This document shows, piece after piece, positions 32,441 through 58,183 of a DNA stretch of 64,000 nucleotides (positions within the stretch are counted from its first letter, which is position 1; each line of letters opens with the position of its first letter). The notes beneath the pieces are model-generated. The model was not told the origin of the DNA, ran no database searches, and was given only the letters and a program-made list of their open reading frames with translations. This DNA is from a virus: IMG/VR virus record IMGVR_UViG_3300020419_001178, positions 1 to 64,000 of that record; one strand, 5' to 3'. A program made the position numbers and the translations under genes.

Positions 32441-33538
32441 ATGGGTACTTTAAGACTTAAAAGAGGGACTAAAGAAGCACTGCAAACCAACCCCGGTTTT
32501 ACACCCGCGGAAGGTGAACTTGTTTATACAACAGACAGTAAAGAAGTATTTGTAGGTGATGGAGCCACACAAGGTGGTGTAGCAGTTTCAGTATCCACAC
32601 AAAACCTAGAAGACTTAGGTAACGTTCAAGCACTAGCGGCGCAAAAAGACCAAATTTTAGTATATACAGGGTCTCAATGGGCGGCAACAAACAATCCAGC
32701 AGTAGACATACGTGGTAACATATATGGTGATGATTCCACACTATTAGTTGATGCTATCAACGGAAAAATAGTAGGACCAGTAGAAACTTCAACAGTAGCG
32801 GCAACTACACTAACAGGAAACCTTACAGGTGATACTAACGGATCACATACAGGCGGAGTGGTTGGTGATGTTGTAGGTAATGTAGTAGGAACTATCACTG
32901 GCTCATTAACAGGTACTATGACAGGTTCAGTATTTGGTGATGACAGTTCAGGACTACTAGTTGACGGTATTAACAATCAAATTACTGGCTCCATTAATGC
33001 TATGAATGTTTCAACATTTGATAACACAATTAACATTGGTACTAAATCAGCCAATCCAGCTTTTAATTATAATACAACATCAACAAACGGTTCTTTTCCA
33101 CAGTCAACTATACAGATTAGAAATGTACACAATGATGTAACAGCAGACGAATTAGGTATTTTCAGATCCAGAGGAGTTTTAGGAGCAAGAACAACTGTAC
33201 AAGCAAATGATGTAATTGGTGGATTTGGTTGGTCAGCATATGACGGAGCATCAGTTTTAATTGGTGCGAACATGAATAGTGTTATTAATAGTGTTTCTAC
33301 AAATAACCTATCAGCAGATTTAATTATTAGAACAAGAAACGGTGCTATATCAACATATGGCGAAGCAATGAGAATTAAAGCAGATAAAGGTGTGACAACA
33401 GCAAGTTACGTCCAGTTTGGTAGTTTGACAACTACACAAAGAGATGCTTTGACTCCTGCTAATGGGATGGTAATTTACAATTCAAGTGATAATAAATTCC
33501 AAGGCTATGAAAACGGTGCTTGGGTTAATTTAATTTAA
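32441..33538 (+). CDS. tail fibre / virion fibre protein
   Basis: N-terminal LKRGT...PAEGELVYTTD...VGDG (Mtd/hyaluronidase-N-like), GxxxG repeats, C-terminal TTTQRDAL..ANGMVIYN...FQGY.NGAW. Confidence 0.8.
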   Translation: MGTLRLKRGTKEALQTNPGFTPAEGELVYTTDSKEVFVGDGATQGGVAVSVSTQNLEDLGNVQALAAQKDQILVYTGSQWAATNNPAVDIRGNIYGDDSTLLVDAINGKIVGPVETSTVAATTLTGNLTGDTNGSHTGGVVGDVVGNVVGTITGSLTGTMTGSVFGDDSSGLLVDGINNQITGSINAMNVSTFDNTINIGTKSANPAFNYNTTSTNGSFPQSTIQIRNVHNDVTADELGIFRSRGVLGARTTVQANDVIGGFGWSAYDGASVLIGANMNSVINSVSTNNLSADLIIRTRNGAISTYGEAMRIKADKGVTTASYVQFGSLTTTQRDALTPANGMVIYNSSDNKFQGYENGAWVNLI

Positions 33539-34109
33539 ATAACTTACCCTTATCATACAATTCAACAATTTCGTTAAAAGGTATATCTGTACTAAATTGA
33601 CAGTGGAATCTATAGTCGTTTGTTTCATTTGTAGCATTATGATACTCTAACAAATTAAAGATTACAGCAGTATGATCTGTATAATTTATAGTTTCTTGTA
33701 ATTTAAATTTAGCATTATCGTAATCACTGTATTCTCCTTCTTCTAAGGTCCAAAACTTTGTTGGGCCAAAGCTACTTATAGTCAATGGGTATACAGGAAT
33801 GCTTATAACACTTACTCTTGGAACAAAAGGATTCTTTTGGTCAACATGTATCTTTCCTATAGTAAAAGGTGTTTGTCCTAGTATTTCATAATGTACATCA
33901 ACTAAAAATTTCTTGCCTATCTCATCCATTAGTTCTGTAGGAATAAGATCTCTAGGACAATACCAATTCCAGTCAGTCTTTCCATACTTGTCTGGCTTTG
34001 TGCCAGTGTAAGCGAAACTGTCTTTATGATTAAGTATATGATCTGCTAACTTAGATCTTGTTTCTTTACTAAAAGTTAACTCTTTAATGTGCTGAAAATA
34101 TGGTCTCAT
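33525..34109 (-). CDS. Fe(II)/2OG-dioxygenase-like (DSBH) protein
   Basis: IHVD ... YHNA ... R pattern. Confidence 0.6.
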   Translation of the reverse strand: MRPYFQHIKELTFSKETRSKLADHILNHKDSFAYTGTKPDKYGKTDWNWYCPRDLIPTELMDEIGKKFLVDVHYEILGQTPFTIGKIHVDQKNPFVPRVSVISIPVYPLTISSFGPTKFWTLEEGEYSDYDNAKFKLQETINYTDHTAVIFNLLEYHNATNETNDYRFHCQFSTDIPFNEIVELYDKGKLFKLN

Positions 34110-34684
34110 TTATTACTCCGTAGTGGATAATTATTTTTAATTTTTTCTTTTATTTCATCAAAAGTATTATGGGTAAACCGTAACTTAAATAATATCCTAT
34201 CTTGATCTTTTTGAACTGGAACACTATGATTGATACTTACATTTAACAATGCAACATCATAGTATTCATCAGCATGTCCCTCAAAATTTATAGGAGTTTG
34301 TTCTCCTTCTAGGATAAAATTTATAGCACATAAAGTGCCTACATCAGTATGTACAGGCACTTCAGAACCTTGTGTCTGCGTTAAAAAGTTTGCTTTGATT
34401 GTATCAGTTTCACAAATCTTTTTGAATAAAGATGTTAATCGTCTACTCTCTGAGAGATCAAATTCTGTGACTTTAGGTTCTCTTGAAGCATTCCACGACC
34501 TTTGCTCTGTCCACCATTTGTTATTTTTTTCAATAAATGACATATCGTCATTGTAATCCAATCCTTCATTATATATCCATGTCAAGGTATCTTTATTAAT
34601 TGGTTGGTACTGAAATACCTTAGACTCTTCTAACAGCTTTTTCTTATCATGATCTACTACAAATTTAAAAATACAATCTTCCAT
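34106..34684 (-). CDS. Fe(II)/2OG-dioxygenase-like protein
   Basis: VHTD..CAINF...LLNVSINHSV...DRI. Confidence 0.65.
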   Translation of the reverse strand: MEDCIFKFVVDHDKKKLLEESKVFQYQPINKDTLTWIYNEGLDYNDDMSFIEKNNKWWTEQRSWNASREPKVTEFDLSESRRLTSLFKKICETDTIKANFLTQTQGSEVPVHTDVGTLCAINFILEGEQTPINFEGHADEYYDVALLNVSINHSVPVQKDQDRILFKLRFTHNTFDEIKEKIKNNYPLRSNK

Positions 34685-34685
34685 T

Positions 34686-35387
34686 TTAATTTTTCCTACC
34701 TAAGTAATACATCCTATTACCCATATCTAAAGCTACTATATCTCCAGTCGCAAACCAGTCATCATATATACTTGTTGATCCTTTCACATGTAACTCATGA
34801 TCAATTATCTTCCAATCACAATAATATGTATCTCCTAAAATTGTATATCCTTCGAAACATCTTTCCTTTACATAGTTAACTTTATCTATACTATCAAATT
34901 CTATGTTAATTGTTATAGGACCTATTTCACTCATTCCCCAGTTAGGTTGTACAATAGCTCCTTTAGAAACAAAAGCTTCTATCATATCCCAAGATACAGG
35001 ATCACTGCCGCCTAATATTCTTTTACCTGTCAAATCACAATCTTTAAATCCTTTAGTATTCATTACTGCTGTCATTTGTGCTGGTGCTAAAAATGTATGG
35101 GTATAATTTTTAAAAATGTCTAAAAACTTAAATGGATTAAATTTCATTGCTGTCACTTCTGCGTTTACACTAAAAGCCGGTAAACTTTGTGCTAATAATC
35201 CGCCAGCATGGGTCATACGTGTCACTGTAAGTATCTTACTTGTTACTGATATCTTTTGGGCATCAACTGCTATACGATTTGCTTCTTTAAGGTTTTCTGG
35301 TGTTCTAAAAATGTCCTTGGACGGGCCTGTTGTCCCACTACTAGAAATGGTTACACCATTTTCTAATACGTGCTGAAAATCAACCAT
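34686..35387 (-). CDS. truncated adenylate-forming (ANL/AMP-binding) enzyme
   Basis: SSGTTGPSK, WGMSEIG, FATGD, YLGR; ends right after the hinge. Start reassigned to ATG 35387. Confidence 0.8.
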   Translation of the reverse strand: MVDFQHVLENGVTISSSGTTGPSKDIFRTPENLKEANRIAVDAQKISVTSKILTVTRMTHAGGLLAQSLPAFSVNAEVTAMKFNPFKFLDIFKNYTHTFLAPAQMTAVMNTKGFKDCDLTGKRILGGSDPVSWDMIEAFVSKGAIVQPNWGMSEIGPITINIEFDSIDKVNYVKERCFEGYTILGDTYYCDWKIIDHELHVKGSTSIYDDWFATGDIVALDMGNRMYYLGRKN

Positions 35388-36420
35388 TTTCGTATTTCTC
35401 CAAGCTATTATTAATTTGATTTTTGACTTTAATGAACGTACAAAGCTCATATAAGCGGTTTATATGCTCTGCGCCTACATACGTACAAGTACTCCGTAAA
35501 CCCCCTTGTAACTGCTTTAAAATGCGTTTAATAGGCCCTTTACAGGGTATTAATAGGTCTCTGCCTTCGTTAGGTTTGTAATCCATTTCGTCTGGATTTG
35601 TTCTGTCATACATTTTGGTACTTCCTAGCCCATACAAGTTTACAAACCGTTTTCCGTCAATTTCAATTACATTATCACACTCGTCACTTCCACTAACCAT
35701 GCCTGCTATCATAACTATTTTAGCTCCCGCTCCAATTGCTTTGGCTACGTCTCCTGGAGTTACACACCCTCCATCAGAAATAATATCTAACCCAAACTTT
35801 GTTGCTTCAGGATAACAATCCATAATAGCACTTAATTGTGGTACTCCTACTCCTACTTCAGATCTTGTCTTACAAGCGGCTCCACTACCTACACCTACTT
35901 TTATTAAATTTGCTCCTGCCATTGCTAATTTTTTAATTACTTCGGGCGTAGCTATGTTTCCCGCACAGATTTTAATGTGCGGAAATTTTTTTCTAAACTG
36001 TGTAATAGTTTCTAACATACCTTCTACATTAGCATACACATTAGCAATGTCAATATTGATTAGTCCAATGTCGGGAAACTGTGAAATAATTTCTATAGTC
36101 TTTTCCCTGTCTTTAAGACGAACACCACTTGTAATAGCAATGTATCTTCTATCACTTATTGATCGTAAGTGTTTTAGATGTTCTTCTAACTTATATTCTT
36201 TGTGTATGAAAGTAAAAAATCTCATCGGTGTAAGTATGTTTGCTATCTTATAGGTACCTGTGCTTGTCATATTAGCAACAGCTATAGGATGTACAGTGGT
36301 ATCCAACCAATCTATTTCTATTTGTATATCTTTTCTCGTAAGAGATTTTGTTGCTTCTTTAGGCTCTATTAAAACATCTTTAAAATCTAATTTTATTTCT
36401 TCTTTAACTTTAGTATTCAT
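35380..36420 (-). CDS. guaC: GMP reductase / IMPDH-family oxidoreductase
   Basis: LDFKDVLI, ANM, AGN, KVGVGSGAACKTR, GVPQLSA, ISDGG, GDVAKA, EGR, GGLRSTCTYVGA. Confidence 0.8.
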   Translation of the reverse strand: MNTKVKEEIKLDFKDVLIEPKEATKSLTRKDIQIEIDWLDTTVHPIAVANMTSTGTYKIANILTPMRFFTFIHKEYKLEEHLKHLRSISDRRYIAITSGVRLKDREKTIEIISQFPDIGLINIDIANVYANVEGMLETITQFRKKFPHIKICAGNIATPEVIKKLAMAGANLIKVGVGSGAACKTRSEVGVGVPQLSAIMDCYPEATKFGLDIISDGGCVTPGDVAKAIGAGAKIVMIAGMVSGSDECDNVIEIDGKRFVNLYGLGSTKMYDRTNPDEMDYKPNEGRDLLIPCKGPIKRILKQLQGGLRSTCTYVGAEHINRLYELCTFIKVKNQINNSLEKYENG

Positions 36421-37342
36421 TTTCGTTTAATTTCACATGTTCGTAAAAAGGAGCTAACTTCCAATCTTTTGTAATTCTGCCTCTACGAATACTTCCAGGG
36501 TCAGGAATACCTACTTCATTATCTGTATCCCAATCTGTTATTTTTACCCATTGCCCTTTATATCTTTCTTTGTTAGTTGGATCTAAAGGAAATTCTATTG
36601 TTCCAGGTTCTACTACATTACTATATCTATGGGGCTTGCCGTAATGACTCCAAATGTAATCTTCTGTATGACCTAGTTGGTCAGCACATAGTTTGACCAT
36701 GTCAGCCATCTTTAAATTTTCATCTGCTTCTTTTTGATACCTTCCAAGTTGTCCTACATTCTTAAAACGCAAAGTTATATCAGGAACTTTTTCTCTAGTA
36801 ATTAACTCAAGAGCCGCCGCTGGTGCTTGTTCATTTATACCTTTAACTAAAATTATTCCTGCGTTCATGTTAAATTTATCTTTACAATTTTTAAATGCTT
36901 TAATTTTTTTTGTAGCACATCTCATTTCGTCTATTTGCTCGTACCAGTCATCATTTTCTATTCCGTTTAGACTCATATAAACATGCTTTAATCCAGTAGC
37001 TTCTATCTTGTTAACAAAGGATTCACTTGACATTCTAAGTCCATTTGTAATTAAAATACAGTTATGTCCGTGTTTGAATCCAATGTTTATAAAATCTATT
37101 AGTTGTGGATGGAGTGTTGGTTCGGCTCCTACTATACGTATCATAATTGGGTTAGGAAGTTTGGCAATAAATTCTTCATATGGTTTAATTTCCATATCTG
37201 GTATGAATCTGTTTGGAACGTAGCAGTTTTTACATTCCATATTACAGCGATGAGTGATATCGGCCACAACATCAAAAAAAGAATTATTCTCCGGCTCGAT
37301 CTCATAATAATTTAGGTTATCAAGATTTATCTGTTTTGTCAT
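36410..37342 (-). CDS. radical SAM enzyme (MoaA-like core)
   Basis: ITHRCNMECKNC, VGAEPTL, ITNG, MSLNG. Confidence 0.85.
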   Translation of the reverse strand: MTKQINLDNLNYYEIEPENNSFFDVVADITHRCNMECKNCYVPNRFIPDMEIKPYEEFIAKLPNPIMIRIVGAEPTLHPQLIDFINIGFKHGHNCILITNGLRMSSESFVNKIEATGLKHVYMSLNGIENDDWYEQIDEMRCATKKIKAFKNCKDKFNMNAGIILVKGINEQAPAAALELITREKVPDITLRFKNVGQLGRYQKEADENLKMADMVKLCADQLGHTEDYIWSHYGKPHRYSNVVEPGTIEFPLDPTNKERYKGQWVKITDWDTDNEVGIPDPGSIRRGRITKDWKLAPFYEHVKLNENEY

Positions 37343-37362
37343 ATAGGCACTCTTTTACAAAG

Positions 37363-37381
37363 TATTTATAGGATATAAATA
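37363..37381. promoter_or_regulatory. back-to-back divergent T4 late promoters
   Basis: TATAAATA on the minus strand (37363-37370) and on the plus strand (37374-37381), between divergent genes. Confidence 0.75.
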
Positions 37382-37386
37382 TACGT

Positions 37387-38082
37387 ATGTATGATGTGAA
37401 CAAATGGCAAGAATTATATACTCCGCACACCGACTATCAAAAAAGTCAGCATAGTGTAGTCAGTTTACCTGACAAGTATGATATAGACTTGAAAGAAATA
37501 GATAAAGGAATTGATACTGTATTAAGTAATTATGAAATGGTTGCTTATACTGTAGACACACCGGTAGGAAAAATACAAGTTCCAGGATACTACGGACTTT
37601 GCTTTAAAACTAAACCTAAATCAAATGACCCTTTAGGTGAAGGATTGACAAGTAATATCCATTCTCACTCTAATATGAATCATCCAGTAGATATCGAATA
37701 TACTGAAAAAAGTCCAGCTTGGTTTCCCTATTTAGATGAAATAACAAAAAAGTTTAGAGGACAAGTTACGCAGATTAGACTTATAAAATTGGAAGCAGGA
37801 CATGACTTGTTAAGTAGAGAAAAAACTTCCCACATTGACTATCCATGGTATAGAGGTATAAGGATTCATATTTGTCTAACACCTGATGTTGATTATGTAT
37901 GGAGAGTTTTAGATAAAGATTATCATTTTCAAAGATCTAGCAAAATGAATTATTTAGATACAGGTAAACCTCACGGTGCCGTAAATAATCATAATGACAA
38001 AGATAGATATGTTTTAAATATAAATTTAGCACCAAAATTAGATTTACATATTGACGAGCAAATAGAAAAACAAATTATTTAA
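37387..38082 (+). CDS. Asp/Asn beta-hydroxylase-like Fe(II)/2OG dioxygenase
   Basis: QIRLIKL, SHID, RIHI, DTGKPHGAVN, R.VL. Confidence 0.7.
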   Translation: MYDVNKWQELYTPHTDYQKSQHSVVSLPDKYDIDLKEIDKGIDTVLSNYEMVAYTVDTPVGKIQVPGYYGLCFKTKPKSNDPLGEGLTSNIHSHSNMNHPVDIEYTEKSPAWFPYLDEITKKFRGQVTQIRLIKLEAGHDLLSREKTSHIDYPWYRGIRIHICLTPDVDYVWRVLDKDYHFQRSSKMNYLDTGKPHGAVNNHNDKDRYVLNINLAPKLDLHIDEQIEKQII

Positions 38083-39583
38083 AAATATTTAATTTTCTTT
38101 GTTTATATTCTTCTATTCTATCTCTGTTTGTTTGACTATACTTCCTTTTTATATACATCTCGTCTAAACTTAAACTTAAAAGTTCATCAGTATCTTCAAA
38201 TTTTCCTATATATTCCGTGATATCAAAGTTAGAAATTTTTTGCTTGAAAAAATAATCTTTGTGATACATTTCTCCAAACTCTGAAGCCTCTTTAAAGTTG
38301 GTTATATCACTTTCCCAAATTAACGCCCTATTATCAAGTTTGTTATTAAGCCTACCCATAGGATCTGCTTTAAACGGAACGTTGTATCCTTTTTTTATTG
38401 ACCAATCAATTATCTCTTTATTTTTAGTCGGAAAGTATCCAAATTTTTGTGCGTCTACACTAAAGTCACTGTGTGTCTTTGTATCTGGGTCGTCACTAAT
38501 ATGTAAGCCCCAATAAAAGAAACTATCCCAATTTTTATCTAACCAGTCTAAGCTATCATACCAAGACTTAACAGGCTCATTAGGCAATCCAGCTATCATT
38601 CCAATTGTGCCTCTATATAAACCTAACCTAGCATTAAACTCATCTCTTATCCATAGTAAACCTTCTTTTATCTTATCGGGATGCATTCCTTTTCCTATAG
38701 CTTTTGCCGCTTCTGGATGAAATGTTTCTATTCCATAAAAATGCCCCCAACATCTTGCTCTCACTAATAATGCGATTTGTTGTGGTCTTGAAATCACTAA
38801 ATCTAATCTAATAAAACAAGTAAAGTTAGGCTCAAAGGGTAAACGTTCTACAGCTAAAGCTAGTTTTTCTATCTTACTATCTCTATCATTAAACGTATCG
38901 TCACTAATAATATAGTTGGTTGTTCCCCATTTCTCATAATTGTGCATCATTTCATTATACAAATCATCCTGTGTCCTACTATAGTCTTCTTTCACCCCTA
39001 AGAAGGCGTAATTACAATACTTACATTTGAATCTACATCCTCTACTTGTTTCTAATGTAAGAGCTTCATGGGGTTCTATGAAATCATTTGGATGGTACAC
39101 ACAATCATATTTGTCTATGTCTAATCCTTTATAATGATGATTAGCATCTATCAATAGACTATTAGGTGCCCAATCAGGATATTTTCCTATAGGTTTAGGT
39201 CCATTGTTAAACATCCATTCTAACACAGGAGTAATACTATGTTCGCTATAACCAAATACCATACAGTCTGCTCCATAATCCATTTGGTAAGGTTTAGGAC
39301 CTCCCATTAAGATTTTGGCCTTAGGGTATTCTTTTTTTAAAAAAGTAATTTTATCGTTGACCATTTCGTCCATCATCCATAAATTACCAAAGGCAAGTAA
39401 ATCAACTTCGTAAGGCAACGAGTCAATAAATTGTTTCACTTCTTTGTTTGACCATCTAGACAGCCAATCTATTACTTCGACAGTCCATCCTTGAGAACGC
39501 ATCATATCGGCAATTTTATACGCACCCATGGTACGTCTAATTATATCGTCACCACTTTCATTAAAAATTACTGCGTAATTCAT
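38075..39583 (-). CDS. B12-binding-type (class B-like) radical SAM enzyme
   Basis: N-terminal Rossmann-like domain with MGGP; ETSRGCRFKCKYC, SDDTFND, GIET, IAGLP.E. Confidence 0.85.
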   Translation of the reverse strand: MNYAVIFNESGDDIIRRTMGAYKIADMMRSQGWTVEVIDWLSRWSNKEVKQFIDSLPYEVDLLAFGNLWMMDEMVNDKITFLKKEYPKAKILMGGPKPYQMDYGADCMVFGYSEHSITPVLEWMFNNGPKPIGKYPDWAPNSLLIDANHHYKGLDIDKYDCVYHPNDFIEPHEALTLETSRGCRFKCKYCNYAFLGVKEDYSRTQDDLYNEMMHNYEKWGTTNYIISDDTFNDRDSKIEKLALAVERLPFEPNFTCFIRLDLVISRPQQIALLVRARCWGHFYGIETFHPEAAKAIGKGMHPDKIKEGLLWIRDEFNARLGLYRGTIGMIAGLPNEPVKSWYDSLDWLDKNWDSFFYWGLHISDDPDTKTHSDFSVDAQKFGYFPTKNKEIIDWSIKKGYNVPFKADPMGRLNNKLDNRALIWESDITNFKEASEFGEMYHKDYFFKQKISNFDITEYIGKFEDTDELLSLSLDEMYIKRKYSQTNRDRIEEYKQRKLNIFK

Positions 39584-43518: not shown

Positions 43519-43540
43519 GATATCCTCCAAATTCTATTCA

Positions 43541-43554
43541 TATAAATATTTATT
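43541..43554. promoter_or_regulatory. overlapping divergent late-type promoters
   Basis: TATAAATA (+, 43541-43548) and AATAAATA (-, 43547-43554). Confidence 0.65.
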
Positions 43555-43580
43555 GAACGTATGTAAAGGTTTTAGTCAAT

Positions 43581-45340: not shown

Positions 45341-45342
45341 TA

Positions 45343-47103: not shown

Positions 47104-47108
47104 GCTTA

Positions 47109-47156
47109 TATTTACCTGCCAGGCTTTAATGTATTTTATTTTGCGAATAATAAATA
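47109..47156. promoter_or_regulatory. divergent late-type promoters
   Basis: GGTAAATA (-, 47109-47116) and AATAAATA (+, 47149-47156). Confidence 0.55.
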
Positions 47157-47173
47157 TTCAAGTAAGAGTGTAA

Positions 47174-48019: not shown

Positions 48020-49530
48020 ACATATATTCAGTAGCTTTAAATATTCATGACCATAATACATACGACGGAACATTTCACAACCAAGTTGAGAGACATAACA
48101 GGATTAAACATAATCTAAATTATGAATGGTCACATGACCCTAGTCCTAGTAAAAAATTTTTTAATGAACATGTATTAGACAAATTTAAAAGTAGAGACGA
48201 AAATAATATATTTGCATTCACAGTATCTAACTTAGGCCAAGAATTTGTAACAGATTTAATTGATGAAAACTTTCCAAATAAAGACTTTTTAAAATTTAAA
48301 CCCAAAAGTTTATGGGAACCATTTCATAACGAGTTTGTTTACTACATTGACCATCATCAATCACATGCTACCTATGCCTTTCTTACTTCGGGATATCCAG
48401 AATCTGATATACTTGCTATAGATGGAAGAGGTTGGCAATTTAATTGTATTTTTATAGGAAAAGATGGTATTATAAAAGACCTATCAAAAAAGATTCCTAT
48501 TGGAGGACTATGGAATAGATTAGCTCAAGACATAGGGTTTAAGTATCTTGACGCAGGCAAAGTAATGGGATTAGCAGGATACGGAAAGTATAATTATCAG
48601 ACAGATGCTATGATTGAAACTTATTTAATGAATCCTAATCATACACTACCTAGTTTTGCTACTGAAGTAATTAAAAATAATAAAAGAGAAGATATAGCTT
48701 ATACATTACAGTTTAAAACTATAGAACTTATAAAAAAGTACGTGTATCCACTTAAGACTTGTGATAATATTTGTGTAGCGGGCGGAGTAGCATACAATGG
48801 TTACATGAACGAAGAACTGACAAAGCACTATAAAAATGTACACATTCCTCCAGCTATAGGAGATGAAGGTCAGGCCTTAGGCACTTATATGCATGCCGAC
48901 TATTATCTAAATGATAATATACATAAGCCTAGTGTGTTTTCTGGCAAGGAACATGTTATAGATACAAATCTGTTTACAGGAATGAGCTTTGAAAAATGGC
49001 CATTTGAAAAATTAGTAAGTATGGTAGCAGAAGAAATTGCTAACGGTAAAATAGTAGGATGGTATCAAGGAAAATCTGAAAGTGGAAATAGAGCTTTAGG
49101 TAATAGAAGCATACTAGCCGATCCACGCAATCCTAATATAAAAGATATCATAAACAGTAAAATTAAGAAACGCGAAGACTTTAGACCATTTGCTCCTAGT
49201 GTTTTAGAAGAACATTATCAAGAATATTTTGACACCAGTCAACCTAGTCCATACATGTCTAGAATTATGCCAGTCAAAGTAGATACAGTACCTGGAATTA
49301 CACATGTAGATGGTACTGCTAGAATACAAACAGTGAATAGATCATTCAATAAACGATATTATGACTTAATTACTGCTTTTTATAAACATACAGGAATACC
49401 TATGCTTTTGAACACCAGTTTTAATTGCCAGGAACCTATAGTAGAAACACCAGCAGATGCTTTACGTACTTTTAAAAATTGTGGTTTAGACTTATTAGTA
49501 TTAGGAGATTATTTAATATGGAAGTTATAA
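48016..49530 (+). CDS. carbamoyltransferase (NodU/CmcH family)
   Basis: DHHQSHA, IDGRG, AGKVMGLAGYG, AGGVAYN, GD.G.ALG, RALGNRSILADP, KKREDFRPFAPS, HVDGTARIQ, LNTSFN. Confidence 0.93.
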   Translation: MNIYSVALNIHDHNTYDGTFHNQVERHNRIKHNLNYEWSHDPSPSKKFFNEHVLDKFKSRDENNIFAFTVSNLGQEFVTDLIDENFPNKDFLKFKPKSLWEPFHNEFVYYIDHHQSHATYAFLTSGYPESDILAIDGRGWQFNCIFIGKDGIIKDLSKKIPIGGLWNRLAQDIGFKYLDAGKVMGLAGYGKYNYQTDAMIETYLMNPNHTLPSFATEVIKNNKREDIAYTLQFKTIELIKKYVYPLKTCDNICVAGGVAYNGYMNEELTKHYKNVHIPPAIGDEGQALGTYMHADYYLNDNIHKPSVFSGKEHVIDTNLFTGMSFEKWPFEKLVSMVAEEIANGKIVGWYQGKSESGNRALGNRSILADPRNPNIKDIINSKIKKREDFRPFAPSVLEEHYQEYFDTSQPSPYMSRIMPVKVDTVPGITHVDGTARIQTVNRSFNKRYYDLITAFYKHTGIPMLLNTSFNCQEPIVETPADALRTFKNCGLDLLVLGDYLIWKL

Positions 49531-50162
49531 ATGAAAACTATTGGAAAGTATGGTGGGAAGCTATACAACACAGTCATGAGATAAAAGATATACTTTACAG
49601 CGTTGGTCCTGATCAAATGGATTCAAAAGTTCATCTTGTTGATAGTATTCCGTTAGATGAAATGAAAAAGTTTAACGATTTAAAAATACACTTATATGGT
49701 GGTTGGTATGGATATCCTCTAATTAATCTTTTACTTAATAAATTTTTAAATATAGAACATATAACAAATATAGACTTAGACGAAAAAGCATTAGATCTAT
49801 CAAGAAAATACACCCACGCTATGAGCTTAGAGAACAAAGTCTTTTTTAAACACAGAGATGTTAAAGATAAAATAGAAACATCTTACTATAAAGACAAAGA
49901 TGTAAGATTAGTTATTAATACATCAAGCGAACACATGGCAGATCTGCCTGATTTAATAGCAAATAAAGATTACACTCCTAATTGTGTATTTGCTTTACAA
50001 AGTAATAATATGTTTCATGTAAAAGATCAACATATAAACTGTTCAAATAATTTAGATGAATTCGTAAGTAAAACTGGGCTTACTAAGATATGGTTTGCTG
50101 ACACTTACAAAATGTCAAACGGATATGAAAGATATACTGTTATTGGCAATCATCGAACTTAG
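49518..50162 (+). CDS. putative SAM-dependent methyltransferase-like protein
   Basis: LYGGWYG, NIDLD, VINTSSEH, LQSNN, H.NC. Confidence 0.6.
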   Translation: MEVINENYWKVWWEAIQHSHEIKDILYSVGPDQMDSKVHLVDSIPLDEMKKFNDLKIHLYGGWYGYPLINLLLNKFLNIEHITNIDLDEKALDLSRKYTHAMSLENKVFFKHRDVKDKIETSYYKDKDVRLVINTSSEHMADLPDLIANKDYTPNCVFALQSNNMFHVKDQHINCSNNLDEFVSKTGLTKIWFADTYKMSNGYERYTVIGNHRT

Positions 50163-50829
50163 ATTTTAACCAATCAAAATCATTTATTAACCGAAGATCA
50201 GACCCCCTAGAAAAGCCAAACTCCATACCAGCATTAGCACCTCGAATCGCATCTTCACGAAATCTTCCATTACCTGTTGTGGTCCATACTTTAAGTCTTT
50301 CATTAGTTTCTCCTTCTTGTTGTCTATCTATCACTTTACTACTTAATTTAGCACATTCTCTAAAAGCACTTTTCCATGTATTAAATGAATCAGTATCGAA
50401 AGCTGTTATGTTACTTACTTGATCAAATACAATGAAGTTGTCTGAAATGCTTGTTGTCATATCATAACTGTTTACATCCATATTCTTTGTTAAGTTTGTT
50501 GGAAGTAACTTGACTCCACCGTAACCATAAGTAAGATTGTTTACAGGATTCATACTTTTGTATACATGAACAATATTTTCAATTTTTGAAGTTACAAAAT
50601 AATTAAACATAAAGTCTTCTGTAATTACTGCGTCACCATCTACTACAAAAAAATATCTTGTATTAGCTTTTTTAGCCGCTTCTATATGAGCTTTGTGTAT
50701 TCCTTTAACCCCGTCTATCCTTTTAACTCTATCTCCAAAAACTCCTGACGTATTAAATCTATTATACAAATCATTATAATTTTTATCTGCGTGAGGCTCG
50801 TTATAACTTATAAAAACTATATCATGCAT
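50140..50829 (-). CDS. GT-A-like glycosyltransferase
   Basis: DIVFISYNEP, GVKGIH.AH, VVDGD (DxD), YGYGGVKL, WKSAFREC.KL. Confidence 0.7.
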   Translation of the reverse strand: MHDIVFISYNEPHADKNYNDLYNRFNTSGVFGDRVKRIDGVKGIHKAHIEAAKKANTRYFFVVDGDAVITEDFMFNYFVTSKIENIVHVYKSMNPVNNLTYGYGGVKLLPTNLTKNMDVNSYDMTTSISDNFIVFDQVSNITAFDTDSFNTWKSAFRECAKLSSKVIDRQQEGETNERLKVWTTTGNGRFREDAIRGANAGMEFGFSRGSDLRLINDFDWLKSKFDDCQ

Positions 50830-52186
50830 TTTTTATTTCCTTGTAAAATTCTTTGTATTCTGGAAATGTTTTTACAAAATTTAGATCTCTTCTTTTGTCA
50901 TATTCATTAACAAATTTGTAAAACAACTTTTGTGATTGTCTTTGCTCTTCTTTAAATTCTTTGTTTTTAAATCTATACAAAACGTCAGCTATAATTCTTT
51001 TTAGCTTGGCTGTTTCTATATCTCCAAAGCCACCAAGATTAGTATTTTCAATCATAAAATCTACTGCTGGAATTAAATGTGTTTTAACCAATTCTTCACT
51101 TGCTACTTTTACATCTAAAAATCCAGGATTACGCACATACGGAATATCAACCTTTATTCTATGATCTTCTCGGTGTTTCCTATAATATGTAGTTTTAAGA
51201 TGTAATATCCAGATTAAAAAATTTTTAAATGTTGGTAAACTTAAAATATTAAAGGCACTCATAAAGCTGATTCTACTGTTTGTATTCCTAGCAAAATATT
51301 CAATATTATCCTTAAACAAATACCAATCCATACCATAACGACTATATTCTGCTTGAGCTCCACTGCTTTCCGCACTTGTAAATAACGTAAACTGTTTAAT
51401 ACTTTTTTTATTTTCTAATTCATTAATACTTTTAGTAAATTTTTTCCATAAATCTTTTGGAGGACATCCATTAGAATTAATAGCAAAATCCAAATGCGGT
51501 TGTGGATTTTCAATCAAATAATTAATAACCTTTTGTGTATGCTTACTCAACAATGGTTCACCACCTGTGATCCTAAAAACTTTCATATGTTTTACTGCTT
51601 CAGGAAACCATTTCCAAAATGCTTCTATATAAGGATTGTGTTCTCTTTCGAGTATTTGTACTTCTTCAGGATCTATAGCATTATATTTCCATATTCCTAA
51701 ATCGTAATGTCCTTCTTGTTTTACTTCTTCTGCCCATTTACTGCTAAAGGCAGGCCCACAGTAAGAACATTTAAAATTACATACATTGCTAAAACTTATT
51801 TCAACATATCTAGGATAAAAGTCTTCATGACCTGTTGAGTTAGAGATACTATCAAAATCATCCCAACTAAAGTGATCAGCACTTTTGTATATTCTATCAC
51901 TAAATTTATCGGTGTTATCTTCAATTCTCCAACAGTAATCACATTCCTCAGGACGTTCATTATTGAGCATTCTACGTCTTGTATTTTTTTTAAACTCTGT
52001 ATTATGTAAAACGTTTGGATTATTTTTTAAATCATCTAAAGGAATCTTGTGAGCTTTGACATGATGACAACTATGGTTTATTCCTGACCCTAAGTGTATG
52101 GTTACCTGTGTCCATTTTGCTAAACAAAATCCACAACCTACTTCATTAAGTTTATCTTTTACTTCAGCCGGATTAGCTCTTATCAT
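50822..52186 (-). CDS. radical SAM enzyme with N-terminal SPASM/twitch-like Cys domain
   Basis: CLAKW..SCHH..CDYCW, then CNFKCSYC, ITGGEP, INSN. Confidence 0.85.
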   Translation of the reverse strand: MIRANPAEVKDKLNEVGCGFCLAKWTQVTIHLGSGINHSCHHVKAHKIPLDDLKNNPNVLHNTEFKKNTRRRMLNNERPEECDYCWRIEDNTDKFSDRIYKSADHFSWDDFDSISNSTGHEDFYPRYVEISFSNVCNFKCSYCGPAFSSKWAEEVKQEGHYDLGIWKYNAIDPEEVQILEREHNPYIEAFWKWFPEAVKHMKVFRITGGEPLLSKHTQKVINYLIENPQPHLDFAINSNGCPPKDLWKKFTKSINELENKKSIKQFTLFTSAESSGAQAEYSRYGMDWYLFKDNIEYFARNTNSRISFMSAFNILSLPTFKNFLIWILHLKTTYYRKHREDHRIKVDIPYVRNPGFLDVKVASEELVKTHLIPAVDFMIENTNLGGFGDIETAKLKRIIADVLYRFKNKEFKEEQRQSQKLFYKFVNEYDKRRDLNFVKTFPEYKEFYKEIKNA

Positions 52187-53082
52187 GATATAAATGATCT
52201 ACCATAATTTTGATTGACAGTTTTAAAAAATGTGCTTTGTTCTTCGTTTAACTGTAATACAGAAATAGGTAGCTGTAGTTGATTTATCAATTCAGTTCCT
52301 AAATTCCATATTTCGTTGTGTAGAATATCACCAGGTAACTCATCTCGGTTACCCCAAATTTCTTCTAAATGGTCGAAGTCTCTTACATTTATATAATCCC
52401 AGTCTGTGAGTAATGTCATTTGTAAGCCTTCTCTTGCTCCGTATATTGCCCAATCTCCGTTTTCAACATCACTACCAACCATAGTCCAGATGTAAAGCAT
52501 GTTTAAGTTCTTTGGATGACCTTGTAAAAATTGTTCATGTGTAGGTCTTACTCCTCTATCTGTAGCTAATTTTACTCCTTCTCTAAATCCTGCTCTCCAT
52601 GCTTGTTTAGGAGTAGTGTTGTTATGTGTCAAACTAAAACAGCTATTCTGTTGGATATATCGTGCGTCCCAACAAAAATCTACCTTAGCATGGATATTAT
52701 CAGGATCAGCATTTTCATGTGTTTTCATGTTTAGAACATATTCTTTAGGCCAGCACTTTAGACCTCCGTTTCCATACATCAGTCCATTAATAACATTTTT
52801 GCCACACCAGCTTATAACACTATTAGACAAGTTTTCATTCTCTTCAAGGTCTATTACTTGATCTAAAAATTCTTGCTTTATAGTATTATCGCCATCTACA
52901 GTTATAAATCTATCAGTTTCACTTAATTTAGCACAGGCTTTATGTGCCGCATCGGACCCTTTTATCCCATGTACACGTTTGGCCCAAGGAACCTTGGTCA
53001 ATAAGTCTGCGTAATTTTTTTCAGCATTTGGTTCATCATAACTTAAAAAAATTATATCTAGTTCTGCTATTTTAATTTTCAT
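52183..53082 (-). CDS. GT-A-like glycosyltransferase (paralogue of 50140-50829)
   Basis: DIIFLSYDEP, GIKGSDAAH, TVDGD, YGNGGLKCW, AWRAGFREG.KL. Confidence 0.7.
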   Translation of the reverse strand: MKIKIAELDIIFLSYDEPNAEKNYADLLTKVPWAKRVHGIKGSDAAHKACAKLSETDRFITVDGDNTIKQEFLDQVIDLEENENLSNSVISWCGKNVINGLMYGNGGLKCWPKEYVLNMKTHENADPDNIHAKVDFCWDARYIQQNSCFSLTHNNTTPKQAWRAGFREGVKLATDRGVRPTHEQFLQGHPKNLNMLYIWTMVGSDVENGDWAIYGAREGLQMTLLTDWDYINVRDFDHLEEIWGNRDELPGDILHNEIWNLGTELINQLQLPISVLQLNEEQSTFFKTVNQNYGRSFIS

Positions 53083-53249
53083 AAATCACCTCTTATCACA
53101 CTATCTCCAAACATTAAATATATTAACGTTTCGTATTTTTCGTCTATTTCAACCCATAATTCTCCTACGAATTCATTTGTAAAAGCTCTACAAGGAAATG
53201 CTTTTTGAATTCCGTAATATGGTCCAAGATGTTTACAAATAATTTTCAT
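53079..53249 (-). CDS. 56-aa hypothetical protein (not in ORF track)
   Basis: MKIICKHLGPYYGIQKAFPCRAFTNEFVGELWVEIDEKYETLIYLMFGDSVIRGDL*; fills the gap and is ATGA-coupled to the next gene. Confidence 0.5.
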   Translation of the reverse strand: MKIICKHLGPYYGIQKAFPCRAFTNEFVGELWVEIDEKYETLIYLMFGDSVIRGDL

Positions 53250-53760
53250 TAGTTTCTCTGGTTACACAATCAGCGAATACATTTTTTGTATATACGCTGT
53301 AAGTTTCAATGTTATTGAAAGGAAACATTTCTTTTGATCCTATCTTAAAAGTAAAAGTATTTAACAAGTAATGTGGGTCTCCTTTTTTTGTAACATAAAA
53401 AGTTATTTCATTTAAGTTCTTTGGTGTGTCTAATGTTTTAACATAACACTTGTTCCTACTTCTATCAACAACAAATTCTATGTCATGGAATTCATCTTTG
53501 GGTTTATATAATTCATTAAGCAAAAAAGTCTGTTGTTCTTGATCAACATTTTTCTTTAATTCAAAGGATTTATTTCTTTTATTATACTGGACTGCCCAAT
53601 TTATAAAATTCTCTTTAAGCGTTTGAAATGGTTTAGCTTGATCATCAGTAATTTCAATATGTTCATAATTAGAATTAATATTAGGACCTATACTAAAAAT
53701 TTCTCCGCTTTCCTTATTGAAGCAAACGTATTGTTGTGTTTTCACTTTGATATCAGCCAT
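53233..53760 (-). CDS. hypothetical protein
   Basis: 175 aa, FYVTKKGDPH motif. Confidence 0.65.
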   Translation of the reverse strand: MADIKVKTQQYVCFNKESGEIFSIGPNINSNYEHIEITDDQAKPFQTLKENFINWAVQYNKRNKSFELKKNVDQEQQTFLLNELYKPKDEFHDIEFVVDRSRNKCYVKTLDTPKNLNEITFYVTKKGDPHYLLNTFTFKIGSKEMFPFNNIETYSVYTKNVFADCVTRETNENYL

Positions 53761-54553
53761 ATGCTTTTTCTAACCTTTCACAAAAGCTATTTTCAGTATA
53801 ATGTAATATTCCATGTTGTAAATAGTTACCTATCTTAAGTTGCTTATCATTGTTAAAATAATAGGGTATAGATTCAGTCCAATCTTGTTGTGCTACTTGC
53901 CAATCCTGTACTTGCGACTTCATATGAACAAAACTTGCGGGAGCAAATATATAATTTTCTATATTCTCGTCTAATAAAGTAATGGCATGATTAAGATCCA
54001 TACTGCTAACCTTAGGAGTTAGTTTCGGAGTATATATTTTGTAATAATCTTTATAATTTCTACAAACATGTTCTAGTTTTAAGTAATATTTCAAAGCTAC
54101 ATCATTTTGTTGGAAGTAATGAAAAGCACAGTATACATTAGGAATATTATTTTCAACAAATGTTTTCCTATAATAGTTGTTTGTTACTAATTTGTTTTTA
54201 TATGTTCTAACATTACTTGTAAAACATACGTCATAATTACTCAAATAATTCCACCAATGGCTAATATCGCTTAAGAATAGCATGTCCGTATCTAGTAATA
54301 CTGTTTCTTTGTAAGGTGTACTGTGAAAAGCCTTCCATCTAATATCTGTTCTATAAAAATCAACTTTATTTCTATCCGAAATTGGAATATCTATAATTTT
54401 ATCAAATACATCCGTATATTCATCTGGAACCTTATCTCCAGTTAGTAGAGAAACATTGTTAATTGTTTGGGTATGTTTAATACTTTTAGCACAAAGGTAA
54501 GCCTGTTTTATATATTCAGTACCTGTCGCTATAATTATATAACCTTTAGACAT
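53753..54553 (-). CDS. GT8-like glycosyltransferase
   Basis: KGYIIIA, TPYKETVLLDTDML (DxD), FVHMK. Confidence 0.72.
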   Translation of the reverse strand: MSKGYIIIATGTEYIKQAYLCAKSIKHTQTINNVSLLTGDKVPDEYTDVFDKIIDIPISDRNKVDFYRTDIRWKAFHSTPYKETVLLDTDMLFLSDISHWWNYLSNYDVCFTSNVRTYKNKLVTNNYYRKTFVENNIPNVYCAFHYFQQNDVALKYYLKLEHVCRNYKDYYKIYTPKLTPKVSSMDLNHAITLLDENIENYIFAPASFVHMKSQVQDWQVAQQDWTESIPYYFNNDKQLKIGNYLQHGILHYTENSFCERLEKAYG

Positions 54554-55376
54554 TCAAATGTCTTTCCAAACTAAACTTATTCATCACATGAATATTCATA
54601 TCTTTGACAGTAGATAGTATGTACTCATTTGTTATATTTTGTTTTTGCGTCAAAAATGTTAAAGTGTCATCTTTAATCTTATGTAATACATCTCTATCTA
54701 ATGTGTAATACATTTTTCCAGGTAGTGACTTTGTCCAGGAACCTTCTTCAAATCCATTCATAATGTGTATACCTATACTAAAAAGATGATCATTTCTAAA
54801 ATTGCGACTTCCTAAATCGTACACATCACTATAGTATTTCCAATTATCGTAAAGATGTTTTAACAGATCAAAAAATATCTTGTTTTCTTTACTCTTAGTA
54901 AAATAAAAACAAGTAGCCCAATAGAAAGGAATTCCTTTATCGTTTATATAATCAAATTCACTGTAGTTTCTCCATTGGCATAAGTCTACTCCGTGTTTGT
55001 AAATCTGAAAATCATAATCTAAGTCAAAAGCATGTTTAAAATTATCATTACAAATTATATAATCTGTATCTAATACTAATGTTTTGTCATATGGGCTTAG
55101 ATAATACGCATTATGTCTTTCGTTATTTTTAAAATGTAGGCTTTGAGAATAACCAAACCCGTCATTATATCGTTTTTGATTATCCTGTGCGTCATTTATT
55201 GTTATAATTTTATCAAAGACATCGTGATACTGTAAATCTATTTTATCAAATGTAGATGTTACTAAAGACACAGGTAAATTTAAATGCCTTTTTGAACGAT
55301 AGGCAAGTTCTATTGCTTGTTTTATATAATCAATAGAACCATTATTGTTAGCAAAACAGATAATTCCATTAGACAT
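54546..55376 (-). CDS. GT8-like glycosyltransferase (paralogue)
   Basis: SPYDKTLVLDTDY, WAT.FYF, FRND, HVMNK. Confidence 0.72.
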   Translation of the reverse strand: MSNGIICFANNNGSIDYIKQAIELAYRSKRHLNLPVSLVTSTFDKIDLQYHDVFDKIITINDAQDNQKRYNDGFGYSQSLHFKNNERHNAYYLSPYDKTLVLDTDYIICNDNFKHAFDLDYDFQIYKHGVDLCQWRNYSEFDYINDKGIPFYWATCFYFTKSKENKIFFDLLKHLYDNWKYYSDVYDLGSRNFRNDHLFSIGIHIMNGFEEGSWTKSLPGKMYYTLDRDVLHKIKDDTLTFLTQKQNITNEYILSTVKDMNIHVMNKFSLERHLNV

Positions 55377-55713
55377 CTACTAAACCTTTTACACTACGTC
55401 TAGTACTAAGAATCTTATAATCTTCGTTATACTGATTTGTTGCTTCAGTGTATTTCTGAATCAATGCCTCAGTAAAATCATTAAGGTCATTAATCTCAAT
55501 AGGAGTTTGGTTATCATCAACTATAATAGTTTTAGTAGTTTTATTTAAAAGCATAGAACAGAAGTTTAACATCTCTCTGTTTGCTGTAAACGTTCCACCA
55601 AGATAGTAAATAATTAGGTTTTCTTGATACTTTTCGGACAGAATTCTCTTTTGATTATTCAGTGTTACAGAATAATTCGAAAACTCTAACGCTTTTTCAA
55701 GAGATTCTTCCAT
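55369..55713 (-). CDS. conserved hypothetical phage protein
   Basis: AGGAG RBS with ATTAAATA box at 55740-55747; 114 aa. Confidence 0.7.
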   Translation of the reverse strand: MEESLEKALEFSNYSVTLNNQKRILSEKYQENLIIYYLGGTFTANREMLNFCSMLLNKTTKTIIVDDNQTPIEINDLNDFTEALIQKYTEATNQYNEDYKILSTRRSVKGLVDV

Positions 55714-55748
55714 AATTATACTCCTAGTTAATGTATAACTATTTAATC

Positions 55749-58158: not shown

Positions 58159-58183
58159 CTATAACCCCTAATCATGTTATATG

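Follow-up and report, generated by a model that had tools for sequence, protein, structure and literature searches.

The window analysed here comprises the first 64 kb (positions 1 to 64,000) of the 145.7-kb IMG/VR record IMGVR_UViG_3300020419_001178, which comes from an uncultured marine giant phage. The family-B DNA polymerase of this phage is 42–50% identical to those of Rak2-, Atu_ph07-, Phosso- and XacN1-type jumbo myoviruses. Because CheckV estimates the completeness of the record at 41%, the full genome is probably ~350 kb long. Between tail-fibre genes, the window harbours an island of 29 open reading frames (ORFs; 33525–55713), which gave no match by megablast against 50,697 phage records. 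The island consists of a conserved seven-gene core (55713–50140), with four glycosyltransferase (GT) genes and one radical S-adenosylmethionine (SAM) enzyme gene, and of a swappable tailoring part (33525–50162). The reading that we favour, at a rough probability of 0.4, is that of a late-transcribed pathway that would build and edit a glycan, most likely on a virion protein.

Enzyme identities were assigned with the curated cut-offs of Pfam and NCBIfam. PHROGs, profile searches of the PDB, AlphaFold2 models, Foldseek, VIA and hhalign served as added tests, and the names of nearest clusters in the Atlas were used as leads only. A scan with the product of 50822–52186 collected 368 IMG/VR relatives. 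The window proteins were mapped onto 80 fetched loci, in stretches of ~20 kb, and the locus counts given below refer to these.

The conserved core and its fibre flanks

The core genes lie on the minus strand and code, in this order, for a 114-residue uncharacterized protein, two GT8 enzymes, a 175-residue uncharacterized protein, a GT-A-type GT, an N_Twi radical SAM enzyme and a second GT-A-type GT. In ~40–59 of the 80 loci, the core is found directly behind the gene of a Ser/Thr-rich protein (55749–56663) and three fibre genes, with the order kept at identities down to 40%. The N_Twi radical SAM enzyme and two core GTs were also searched against the 50,697 phage records, and the Ralstonia jumbo phage RsoM2USA was the sole match.

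The N_Twi radical SAM protein (50822–52186) scores 306.8 bits against NF033640, for a cut-off of 170, and its residues 20–448 align with positions 4–398 of the 398 of the profile. Both the CNFKCxYC motif (Cys136, Cys140 and Cys143) and the N-terminal Cys residues 21, 40, 82 and 85 are invariant in 16 sequences, down to 43% identity. The protein thus combines the radical SAM motif of NF033640 with an N-terminal, Cys-rich, twitch/SPASM-like region, and it is predicted to bind clusters. We found no characterized member of the NF033640 family (N_Twi_rSAM, twitch domain-containing radical SAM protein). In the PDB, the profile matched MoaA alone, with an E-value of 0.011 and over the GGEP motif only.

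The two GT8 genes (53753–54553 and 54546–55376, together 53753–55376) are paralogous (E = 2.8e-9) and code for glycogenin-like proteins with a conserved LDTD motif. The single sequences gave no Pfam match; in profile searches of the PDB, the first matched glycogenin-1 (E = 2.2e-5) and the second glycogenin-2 (E = 0.012). With their GT8 similarity and DxD motif, both are predicted to transfer sugars with retention of configuration. For the first GT-A-type protein (52183–53082), the AlphaFold2 model has a pLDDT of 86.6, and the best Foldseek matches are the peptide S-glycosyltransferases SunS and ThuS. VIA superposed it on B4GALNT1 (Z of 10.7, root-mean-square deviation of 3.1 over 139 residues) and also matched it to STIV A197, ThuS/SunS and the GT-A enzymes of PBCV-1 and Mimivirus, while its profile gave no useful match in the PDB. 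Its paralogue (50140–50829; blastp E = 1.3e-23, hhalign probability of 100%) has a VDGD motif. Nucleotidyltransferases followed at Z ~9, and a reading as sugar nucleotidyltransferases was considered for both proteins. We nevertheless prefer to read them as GTs, without discarding the other assignment, because the DxD motif is invariant (Asp63 and Asp65 in 52183–53082) and no Gly-rich nucleotidyltransferase loop is visible by eye. An earlier, sequence-only reading of this DNA had counted at least four GTs in the island, which agrees with these two GT8 and two GT-A enzymes; a fifth (44456–45340) is tentative.

The 114-residue protein (55369–55713), encoded at the head of the core operon, occurs in 43 loci and has no PDB match. 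The 175-residue protein (53233–53760) occurs in 25 loci, without PDB or Pfam matches. Between the latter gene and that of the first GT-A-type enzyme, a 56-residue ORF (53079–53249, minus strand) is restricted to close relatives: it is 94% identical in two of them (L002 and L003) and absent from this position in more distant loci.

Fibre genes were identified on both sides of the island, and the description of a ~22-kb island embedded among them, made from about 28 genes in the sequence-only reading, is therefore correct; our ORF map and strands agree with it. On the left, a plus-strand gene (32441–33538) codes for a fibre-like receptor-binding protein. Searches for it by tblastn in phages and by profile in the PDB found nothing, and it was then identified by Pfam Mtd_N, the N-terminal domain of the major tropism determinant (E = 9.3e-11, 41.9 bits for a cut-off of 26.3). 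The sequence GATAAATA lies 33 bases upstream of its start codon. On the right, the minus-strand gene 55749–56663 separates the core from the fibres. Its 304-residue product contains 24% Ser and Thr and no Cys, is syntenic in 37 loci and matches RsoM2USA ORF355 in its C-terminal part, which makes it a candidate acceptor or fibre part. Three fibre paralogues with tail-fibre PHROGs follow on the minus strand (56680–62112) and share an N-terminal domain of ~300 residues (blastp E of 1e-32 to 1e-39). One of the right-flank fibres has a Peptidase_G2 intramolecular-chaperone domain and one a Tail Collar domain (E = 2.4e-13).

Adjoining these fibres, a single minus-strand ORF of 4,986 codons (62745–77705 of the record, partly in the window) codes for a giant protein of structural or adhesin-like character. 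It has an FG-GAP repeat and weakly matches CBM_5_12 and the N-terminal part of the T7 tail fibre. A second set of giant fibre-like paralogues (1076–1848 residues), with three 279-residue paralogues that are 64–71% identical, is found at 107664–133611 of the record. It is followed, in the region of 127–134 kb, by the gene of a 607-residue carbamoyltransferase, a paralogue of the product of 48016–49530 (E = 1e-51). Several genes of that set are preceded by the late boxes described below, and the same genome thus holds a second fibre-plus-tailoring arrangement. Two genes at 28352–30818, just left of the fibre and island block, code for an AAA ATPase, which matches phrog_1297 (E = 2.8e-102) and has a weak ‘porphyrin biosynthesis’ hit, and for its partner (phrog_1314). 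This pair resembles the CobS/CobT-like pair of marine T4-like phages and adjoins an island with a B12-dependent radical SAM enzyme.

Late promoters and tailoring genes

The island comprises seven transcription units over both strands, and all seven are headed by an (A)TAAATA box located 11 to 38 bases upstream of the start codon. Boxes are similarly placed ahead of the fibre genes and of other large structural genes. ATAAATA occurs 31 times in 145 kb, and 18 of these occurrences fall in intergenic DNA, which makes up 4.3% of the sequence. This corresponds to 2.84 per kb in intergenic and 0.09 per kb in coding sequence, a ~30-fold enrichment. In the left part of the island, TATAAATA lies 26 bases upstream of the start codon of 36410–37342, and it belongs to a divergent pair (37363–37381) that is exact on both strands, at 37363 on the minus and 37374 on the plus strand. 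AATAAATA is found 22 bases upstream of 42901–43530 and 23 bases upstream of 47174–48019, an exact TATAAATA box (43541–43548, plus strand) serves the 43581–46416 operon, and GGTAAATA lies 11 bases upstream of 46405–47103. The core is headed by TAAATA at 55740–55745, 32 bases upstream of the start codon of 55369–55713 and within the 35-base gap that follows 55749–56663.

Sigma-70-like matches are no more frequent than in shuffled sequence. The record codes for a homologue of the late sigma factor gp55 of T4 (89373–89645, plus strand, within an open frame of 287 residues; 33% identity over 93 residues, E = 6.6e-7). The sequence-only reading, which had noted TAAATA late-type boxes and no sigma-70 consensus, is thus confirmed on this point, and late timing of the island is well supported by its promoter sequences. 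Outside the island, near-consensus sigma-70-type promoters were seen before 28352 (TGnTATAAT) and before 29550 (TTGACA-17-TATATT). An upstream same-strand block codes for a GTP cyclohydrolase I (FolE, 128 bits) at 23646–24131 of the window.

Searches with the carbamoyltransferase and the small radical SAM enzyme of the middle tailoring cassette (43581–50162) led to Pelagibacter phage Mosig EXVC030M (MT647606). The cassette starts, on the plus strand, with a gene for a nitroreductase-fold flavoprotein (43581–44459; PDB profile E = 2.4e-5) that is 56% identical to a nitroreductase-domain protein of Mosig. The next gene (44456–45340, plus strand) belongs to a widespread marine family with 1575 unnamed metagenome relatives, from which no annotation was gained. 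Its product is tentatively modelled as a GT-B enzyme, which would be the fifth GT of the island. The AlphaFold2 model has a pLDDT of 64.6, with less than 60 in the C-terminal half. The top VIA matches are all GT-B proteins, with Z of 9.7, 9.2 and 8.9, values within the range of chance matches, and the profile gave no useful match in the PDB. A sugar aminotransferase of the DegT/PseC/LegC type follows (45343–46416, plus strand; DegT_DnrJ_EryC1 E = 2.5e-87), for which the LegC and PseC models both reach ~190 bits, under their cut-offs, and ArnB 160.7 bits.

A monocistronic minus-strand gene (46405–47103) codes for an SGNH/GDSL-like esterase (Lipase_GDSL E = 0.0026), with GCSNT and DNLH (DxxH) motifs recognized by eye. 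It is followed on the plus strand by the gene of a small radical SAM protein (47174–48019; Radical_SAM E = 3.6e-9, CNKSCHYC), 54% identical to Mosig_00088 and with four extra C-terminal Cys residues (200, 219, 252 and 255). The NodU/TobZ-type carbamoyltransferase comes next (48016–49530, plus strand; Carbam_trans_C E = 9.9e-68, Carbam_trans_N E = 2.9e-17) and is 56% identical to that of Mosig. The last gene (49479–50162, plus strand), whose true start is probably the ATG at 49518, codes for a methyltransferase-like protein with a spermine-synthase-type fold (Spermine_synth, 23.0 bits for a cut-off of 22.9). No convincing small ORF for a micropeptide was found beside the carbamoyltransferase gene, in 49350–50200. 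By analogy with BtrN/BtrR and TobZ, the small radical SAM enzyme, with its extra Cys cluster, may oxidize a sugar hydroxyl and the DegT enzyme aminate the resulting ketone, with the carbamoyltransferase and the methyltransferase capping the product.

The tentative GT-B model also matches the T4 alpha-glucosyltransferase (Z of 8.9), which would suit DNA hypermodification, with the GTs and tailoring enzymes decorating a modified base of the phage DNA. Radical SAM and pyridoxal phosphate enzymes take part in thymidine hypermodification. DNA glycosylation by phages, moreover, involves a variety of glycans (Pyle et al. 2024, as cited in PMC12619734); the citing ‘moraphage’ paper concerns a different lineage, and we rejected it as a precedent for the island. 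We regard this explanation as very improbable. There are no base-exchange (DpdA/TGT), hydroxymethylase or 5-hydroxymethyldeoxyuridine kinase genes among the Pfam and NCBIfam matches of the island, nor does the 145-kb record, which covers 41% of the genome, match Pfam TGT (DpdA-type) or Thymidylat_synt. The FolE-containing block lies elsewhere, at 16–25 kb, and has no late box, and the core is syntenic with structural rather than replication genes.

The left block (33525–43530) completes the tailoring part. Its operon next to the left-hand fibre, on the minus strand, is headed by the gene of a TrsS/MoaA-like radical SAM protein (36410–37342; Radical_SAM E = 6.9e-13, CNMECKNC). An enzyme of the GMP reductase/IMPDH family is encoded next (35380–36420; Pfam IMPDH E = 1.7e-58), with the catalytic Cys183 in GSGAACKTR and ISDGG at 214–218; we take GSGAACKTR and the phosphate-binding DGG to be the counterparts of the GuaC motifs. 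It scores below the GMP-reductase equivalog cut-offs (PRK05096, 303.6 bits for 397; TIGR01305, 289.7 for 492). Thus, the sequence points to a member of the GMP-reductase family whose exact activity is not assured. The product of 34686–35450 has the SSSGTTGPSK and GRKN motifs of an adenylate-forming (ANL) enzyme (AMP-binding E = 4.8e-10). We call it a mini-ANL because it has only 254 residues and covers positions 170–333 of the profile alone. Two small proteins are encoded at the end of the operon. One, of 192 residues (34106–34684), is a weakly AspH-like 2-oxoglutarate (2OG) oxygenase (Asp_Arg_Hydrox E = 0.11; HTD112...H172 motif). The other, of 194 residues (33525–34109), is a possible 2OG oxygenase that matches no Pfam, NCBIfam or PHROG family and for which the nearest named Atlas clusters, Asp_Arg_Hydrox and 2OG-FeII_Oxy_3 at 0.93, provide a lead.

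A plus-strand gene codes for another weakly AspH-like 2OG oxygenase of 231 residues (37387–38082; Asp_Arg_Hydrox E = 0.026). The remaining genes form a minus-strand operon from 43530 to 38075, headed by that of an AspH-family 2OG oxygenase (42901–43530; Asp_Arg_Hydrox, 24.0 bits for a cut-off of 22.6) that is 44% identical to Mosig_00081. They code further for a 186-residue protein with a GNAT-like lead (42344–42904; Atlas N-acetyltransferase clusters at 0.97–0.99, with Acetyltransf_1 on 20% of one cluster), an 85-residue protein with a weak DUF6356 match (42103–42360) and a class IV aminotransferase of the D-amino-acid or branched-chain type (41274–42113; Aminotran_4 E = 6.1e-33). Two small proteins of 189 and 175 residues (40203 and 40769, together 40203–41296) follow; they have the low-information HxD..H motif only and no significant family match in Pfam, NCBIfam or PHROGs. 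The operon ends with a class I SAM methyltransferase (39580–40203; Methyltransf_25 E = 4.9e-16) and a B12-binding radical SAM enzyme (38075–39622; Radical_SAM E = 1.3e-15, B12-binding E = 7.5e-6) that is weakly PhpK-like. Ten unassigned proteins matched only PHROGs of unknown function. Comparison of the small proteins with each other by hhalign, meant to show whether the six supposed dioxygenases are interrelated, gave no signal, which is uninformative because the alignments of the left block hold only two to three sequences.

Most of the enzymes named in the sequence-only reading were recovered: four radical SAM proteins, one of the B12 type and two with extra Cys clusters (C-terminal in 47174–48019, N-terminal in 50822–52186), the carbamoyltransferase, the nitroreductase, the ANL enzyme, though truncated, and the class IV and DegT aminotransferases. 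Other calls were too firm. Among six supposed HxD..H dioxygenases, 42901–43530 passes the Pfam cut-off, 34106, 37387 and 33525 have weak matches or leads, and 40203 and 40769 the motif only. The GMP reductase is a family member with its catalytic Cys, below the equivalog scores. One of the two methyltransferases is clear (39580–40203) and the other borderline (49479–50162). The SGNH enzyme has a weak Pfam match and motifs seen by eye, and the GNAT-like gene an Atlas lead.

This set of enzymes resembles the logic of aminoglycoside and nucleoside antibiotics. It unites radical SAM enzymes that have auxiliary clusters and a B12-radical SAM methylase with GTs, an ANL enzyme, a TobZ-type carbamoyltransferase, a DegT aminotransferase and an enzyme of the purine-nucleotide type, all of them soluble. 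They might thus produce a free small molecule of such a type late in infection, to be released at lysis or to act in the cell. We find this quite improbable. Pfam and NCBIfam scans of the island revealed no cyclitol synthase, nonribosomal peptide synthetase, polyketide synthase, carrier protein, exporter or self-resistance gene, and a free product leaves the tight, conserved operon linkage of core and fibres unexplained.

Exchange of cassettes and the likely acceptor

The genes of the middle cassette recur together, in shuffled order, in 11–31 loci. The slot is hypervariable, since a distant relative (L088) keeps the same left flank with different content. Identity to the closest relative falls into two classes, 70–81% for some genes and 90–97% for their neighbours, which suggests gene-by-gene allele replacement. 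This mosaic identity and the varying content of the slot would also be expected if the inter-fibre slot were a recombination hot spot that gathers accessory genes unrelated to one another, with no single product. In that case, pathways would be formed by the core alone or by the core and the cassette that Mosig shares, and the GMP reductase would serve salvage for an AT-rich genome. The seven transcription units on both strands, the left block limited to close relatives and the GMP reductases that XacN1 and other large phages encode away from any glycan genes fit such a slot. We hold it to be decidedly unlikely, as every unit has the same late box and as the families are coherent in theme, namely amino-sugar, carbamoyl, methyl, acyl and redox tailoring. 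The joint recurrence of the cassette genes also speaks against it. Furthermore, a homologue of the GMP-reductase-like gene is found 0.6–1.6 kb from the N_Twi radical SAM gene in five other contigs, which suggests that this gene belongs to the pathway.

From the gene identities, box placement, synteny and core/variable split we infer a product, an order of steps and an acceptor. The core, with its two GT8 and two GT-A enzymes, N_Twi radical SAM protein and two small uncharacterized proteins, would assemble a short oligosaccharide from host nucleotide sugars on an intracellular acceptor. Exchangeable cassettes of soluble enzymes would afterwards edit the glycan. One cassette would comprise the small radical SAM, DegT, carbamoyltransferase and methyltransferase proteins, with the nitroreductase-like, SGNH and AspH-type enzymes. 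The extra left block of the window phage would add the B12-radical SAM enzyme, the class IV aminotransferase, the mini-ANL and the GMP-reductase-like enzyme. The acceptor would most likely be a virion protein produced simultaneously, either the adjacent fibres or the Ser/Thr-rich product of 55749–56663, and particles with a variable sugar coat would result.

An oligosaccharide on an intracellular acceptor is proposed because four to five GTs occur with amino-, carbamoyl-, methyl-, acyl- and redox-tailoring enzymes, and because Pfam scans and hydropathy revealed no flippase, polymerase, carrier protein or exporter/transporter among the island ORFs. A membrane helix is likely in one ORF product only, the 85-residue protein of 42103–42360 (hydropathy of 1.93 over residues 30–48). 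A virion protein is favoured because the position of the core is conserved inside a late structural block. The carbamoyltransferase paralogue found behind other fibre-like genes, at 127–134 kb, was counted in favour of it as well. As judged from gene context, virion fibres are the most likely acceptor.

Several observations weigh against this reading. The sequence-only reading had proposed that island content should co-vary with the fibre alleles, and this was checked on 17 non-redundant related loci by Mantel and partial Mantel tests, with the divergence of the radical SAM enzyme as the control for relatedness. Cassette content correlates with fibre-tip divergence (Mantel r of 0.2–0.39), but there is no co-variation beyond relatedness (partial Mantel r of about 0, p > 0.1), and the proposal failed. 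GT distances and fibre distances did show positive partial correlations, which were rejected as a sign of co-evolution, as they relate sequence distances of linked genes and as a single radical SAM gene is a poor control for relatedness. In one relative (L045), the fibres are 87–96% and the product of 55749–56663 is 87% identical to those of the window, the GT8 enzymes are 56–63% and the radical SAM enzyme is 72% identical, and cassette similarity is 0.15. This pattern indicates a recombination boundary between 55749–56663 and the core, and a glyco-module exchanged independently of the fibre alleles. A serotype-like variable coat and a host-directed function would each be compatible with such exchange, unlike tight enzyme-substrate co-evolution.

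Further points of this kind come from gene content. Neither the N_Twi radical SAM enzyme nor the two core GTs searched have a match in XacN1, which is the nearest relative of RsoM2USA, and the core is therefore accessory and not essential for assembly. The GMP reductase of XacN1 is encoded in a non-structural region, and the product of 35380–36420 may be a nucleotide-salvage enzyme whose gene was caught in the slot. The left block occurs in four close relatives only, so it may represent a separate pathway. Lastly, Pfam and NCBIfam detected neither a nucleotidyltransferase nor a 4,6-dehydratase for sugar-nucleotide synthesis in the 29 island ORFs. Thus, the preference of the sequence-only reading for glycan decoration of fibres over DNA modification is sustained in part: the late boxes, the gp55-like factor, the flanking fibres, the soluble enzymes and the four to five GTs agree with it, whereas the acceptor is deduced from context and the co-variation check showed nothing beyond relatedness.

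Some of the same families would suit remodelling of the host envelope. Lipopolysaccharide (LPS) core, O-chain or another surface glycan would be modified at the cytoplasmic face. The receptor of the fibres would thereby be masked, superinfection restricted and fewer progeny lost to debris. GT8 is a family of LPS-core galactosyl- and glucosyltransferases, the DegT family includes ArnB, and the AspH family includes LpxO. The GT8, DegT/ArnB-like and AspH/LpxO-like proteins of the island fit LPS-core chemistry equally well, and the lack of membrane proteins does not argue against it, since enzymes of the LPS core work as soluble or peripheral proteins and do not depend on a flippase from the phage. 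Remodelling is also the published interpretation of the host recognition clusters (HRCs) of pelagimyophages, whose GTs were proposed to alter the host O-chain and thereby avoid co-infection (PMC7029224). We take it as a serious rival but nevertheless judge it unlikely here. Expression from late boxes leaves little time for replacing the LPS of the outer membrane, and the core is tied to a structural operon across Ralstonia and marine hosts, which differ in their LPS. In the PDB, the GT8 profiles match the protein-glycosylating glycogenin, not LgtC-type LPS enzymes, and no lipid A- or Kdo-specific enzymes are encoded.

Homologues of the N_Twi radical SAM enzyme also occur in bacteria, and ~60 of the 77 loci are labelled Bdellovibrionota in their database records. 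In Bdellovibrio sp. HCB2-146 (L098, 1959–15133), the gene of a 1965-residue protein with a C-terminal endosialidase chaperone (Peptidase_S74) is followed by that of the N_Twi enzyme, 2 kb from this fibre-like protein. The locus further contains a second radical SAM gene, whose product has an N-terminal Pfam SPASM domain, and three GT2 genes, and it may represent a glycosylation module for a phage-like fibre of the predator. Nine other large neighbours of bacterial N_Twi homologues are TPR proteins, other radical SAM proteins, transporters or metabolic enzymes, or gave no informative match. The fibre link is thus an anecdote rather than a rule, with one such locus and different neighbours elsewhere. 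Three contigs binned as Fischerella and Neomarinimicrobiota metagenome-assembled genomes (L096, L107 and L108), one of them 335 kb long, hold phage fibre genes and the full core in phage order; they are very probably mis-binned phage contigs.

In its most extended form, glycosylation of virion proteins would mean that the core glycosylates the tail fibres, that the radical SAM enzyme edits the protein-bound sugar by a type of reaction not yet described, that the cassettes set a ‘glycotype’ for each lineage, and that predatory Bdellovibrionota do the same on their phage-like adhesive fibres. We consider this combination unlikely. If it is correct, a bacterial virus would display a serotype-like variable coat. 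With decorated fibres, giant aquatic phages would spend 5–10% of their genome on a sugar coat made via uncharacterized radical chemistry, with bearing on host recognition, particle stability and escape from bacterial defences. If the host envelope is remodelled instead, the island would be a late-acting receptor-masking system. In either case, the N_Twi radical SAM family, with hundreds of viral and many Bdellovibrionota copies, has no known reaction. The window is of value mainly for its unusual left block and for how cleanly core and cassettes are separated.

Comparison with known systems

The fibrils of Mimivirus and other Megavirinae and the capsids of chloroviruses carry virus-made glycans with rare sugars, for which soluble GTs are encoded in variable, clade-specific clusters that include a DegT-type aminotransferase. 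Freeman and co-workers reportedly described capsid and tail-tube glycans of mycobacteriophages in 2023. The island shares with these virion glycosylation systems the virus-encoded soluble GTs, the variable clusters and the DegT-type aminotransferase. Unlike the island, however, the systems of the Mimivirus and mycobacteriophage types provide their own sugar-nucleotide synthesis and have no radical SAM enzymes. Their glycans were demonstrated on the particle, whereas the island is known from its genes alone.

In streptococci, serine-rich adhesins are O-glycosylated in the cytoplasm by soluble GT8/GT2-type enzymes, and the heptosyltransferases of autotransporters are likewise cytoplasmic. Serial soluble GT-A enzymes acting on a Ser/Thr-rich fibrous adhesin resemble what we propose for the island. 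The likeness is nevertheless limited to the GT8/GT-A folds, and neither radical SAM enzymes nor carbamoyl tailoring are part of the adhesin systems.

The general layout of the island has already been published for pelagimyophages, and islands of this kind have been noted in marine T4-like phages. As described by Zaragoza-Solas et al. (2020, PMC7029224), the HRCs of pelagimyophages and cyanomyophages bring together radical SAM cassettes, tail fibres and GT8 enzymes. Like them, the window island is hypervariable, lies in the structural region and holds tail-fibre, GT8 and radical SAM genes. HRCs are located between VrlC and the neck gene gp14 (PMC7029224); in the window phage, the 4,986-residue FG-GAP protein just past the fibres sits where VrlC would be expected, and it showed no similarity by BLAST to a partial VrlC fragment of Mosig.

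In Mosig itself, a similar island of ~20 kb is flanked by a tail-fibre gene on one side and by the giant structural VrlC gene on the other. It shares seven genes with the window at 32–56% identity, namely those of the AspH-like, nitroreductase-like, DegT, small radical SAM, carbamoyltransferase and methyltransferase proteins and of the 44456–45340 family. In contrast with the window, no match to the N_Twi radical SAM enzyme was found in Mosig, nor did any core gene match its 25-kb island locus (L167). By its DNA polymerase, the window phage belongs to the jumbo group of Rak2, Atu_ph07 and XacN1 rather than to Kyanoviridae. The sequence-only reading had spoken of natural-product-grade chemistry in a phage. 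With the published HRCs and the Mosig island, this claim is less new than stated. In the literature searched, we found no description of the core itself, with its four GTs and N_Twi radical SAM enzyme.

The closest known counterpart of that core is found in RsoM2USA (MG752970), in which ORF348–354, all annotated as ‘hypothetical’, correspond to the same seven genes in the same order, at 33–45% identity. There too, the core directly follows a fibre-like gene (ORF355), in the neighbourhood of the tail sheath gene and other structural genes. Little of the variable tailoring part is present, with a methyltransferase-like match as the only one. Ten abundant virion bands of RsoM2USA were identified by mass spectrometry, and none corresponds to ORF348–354 (PMC8504454). 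With the core in RsoM2USA and one tailoring cassette in Mosig, two culturable phages make the question experimentally accessible.

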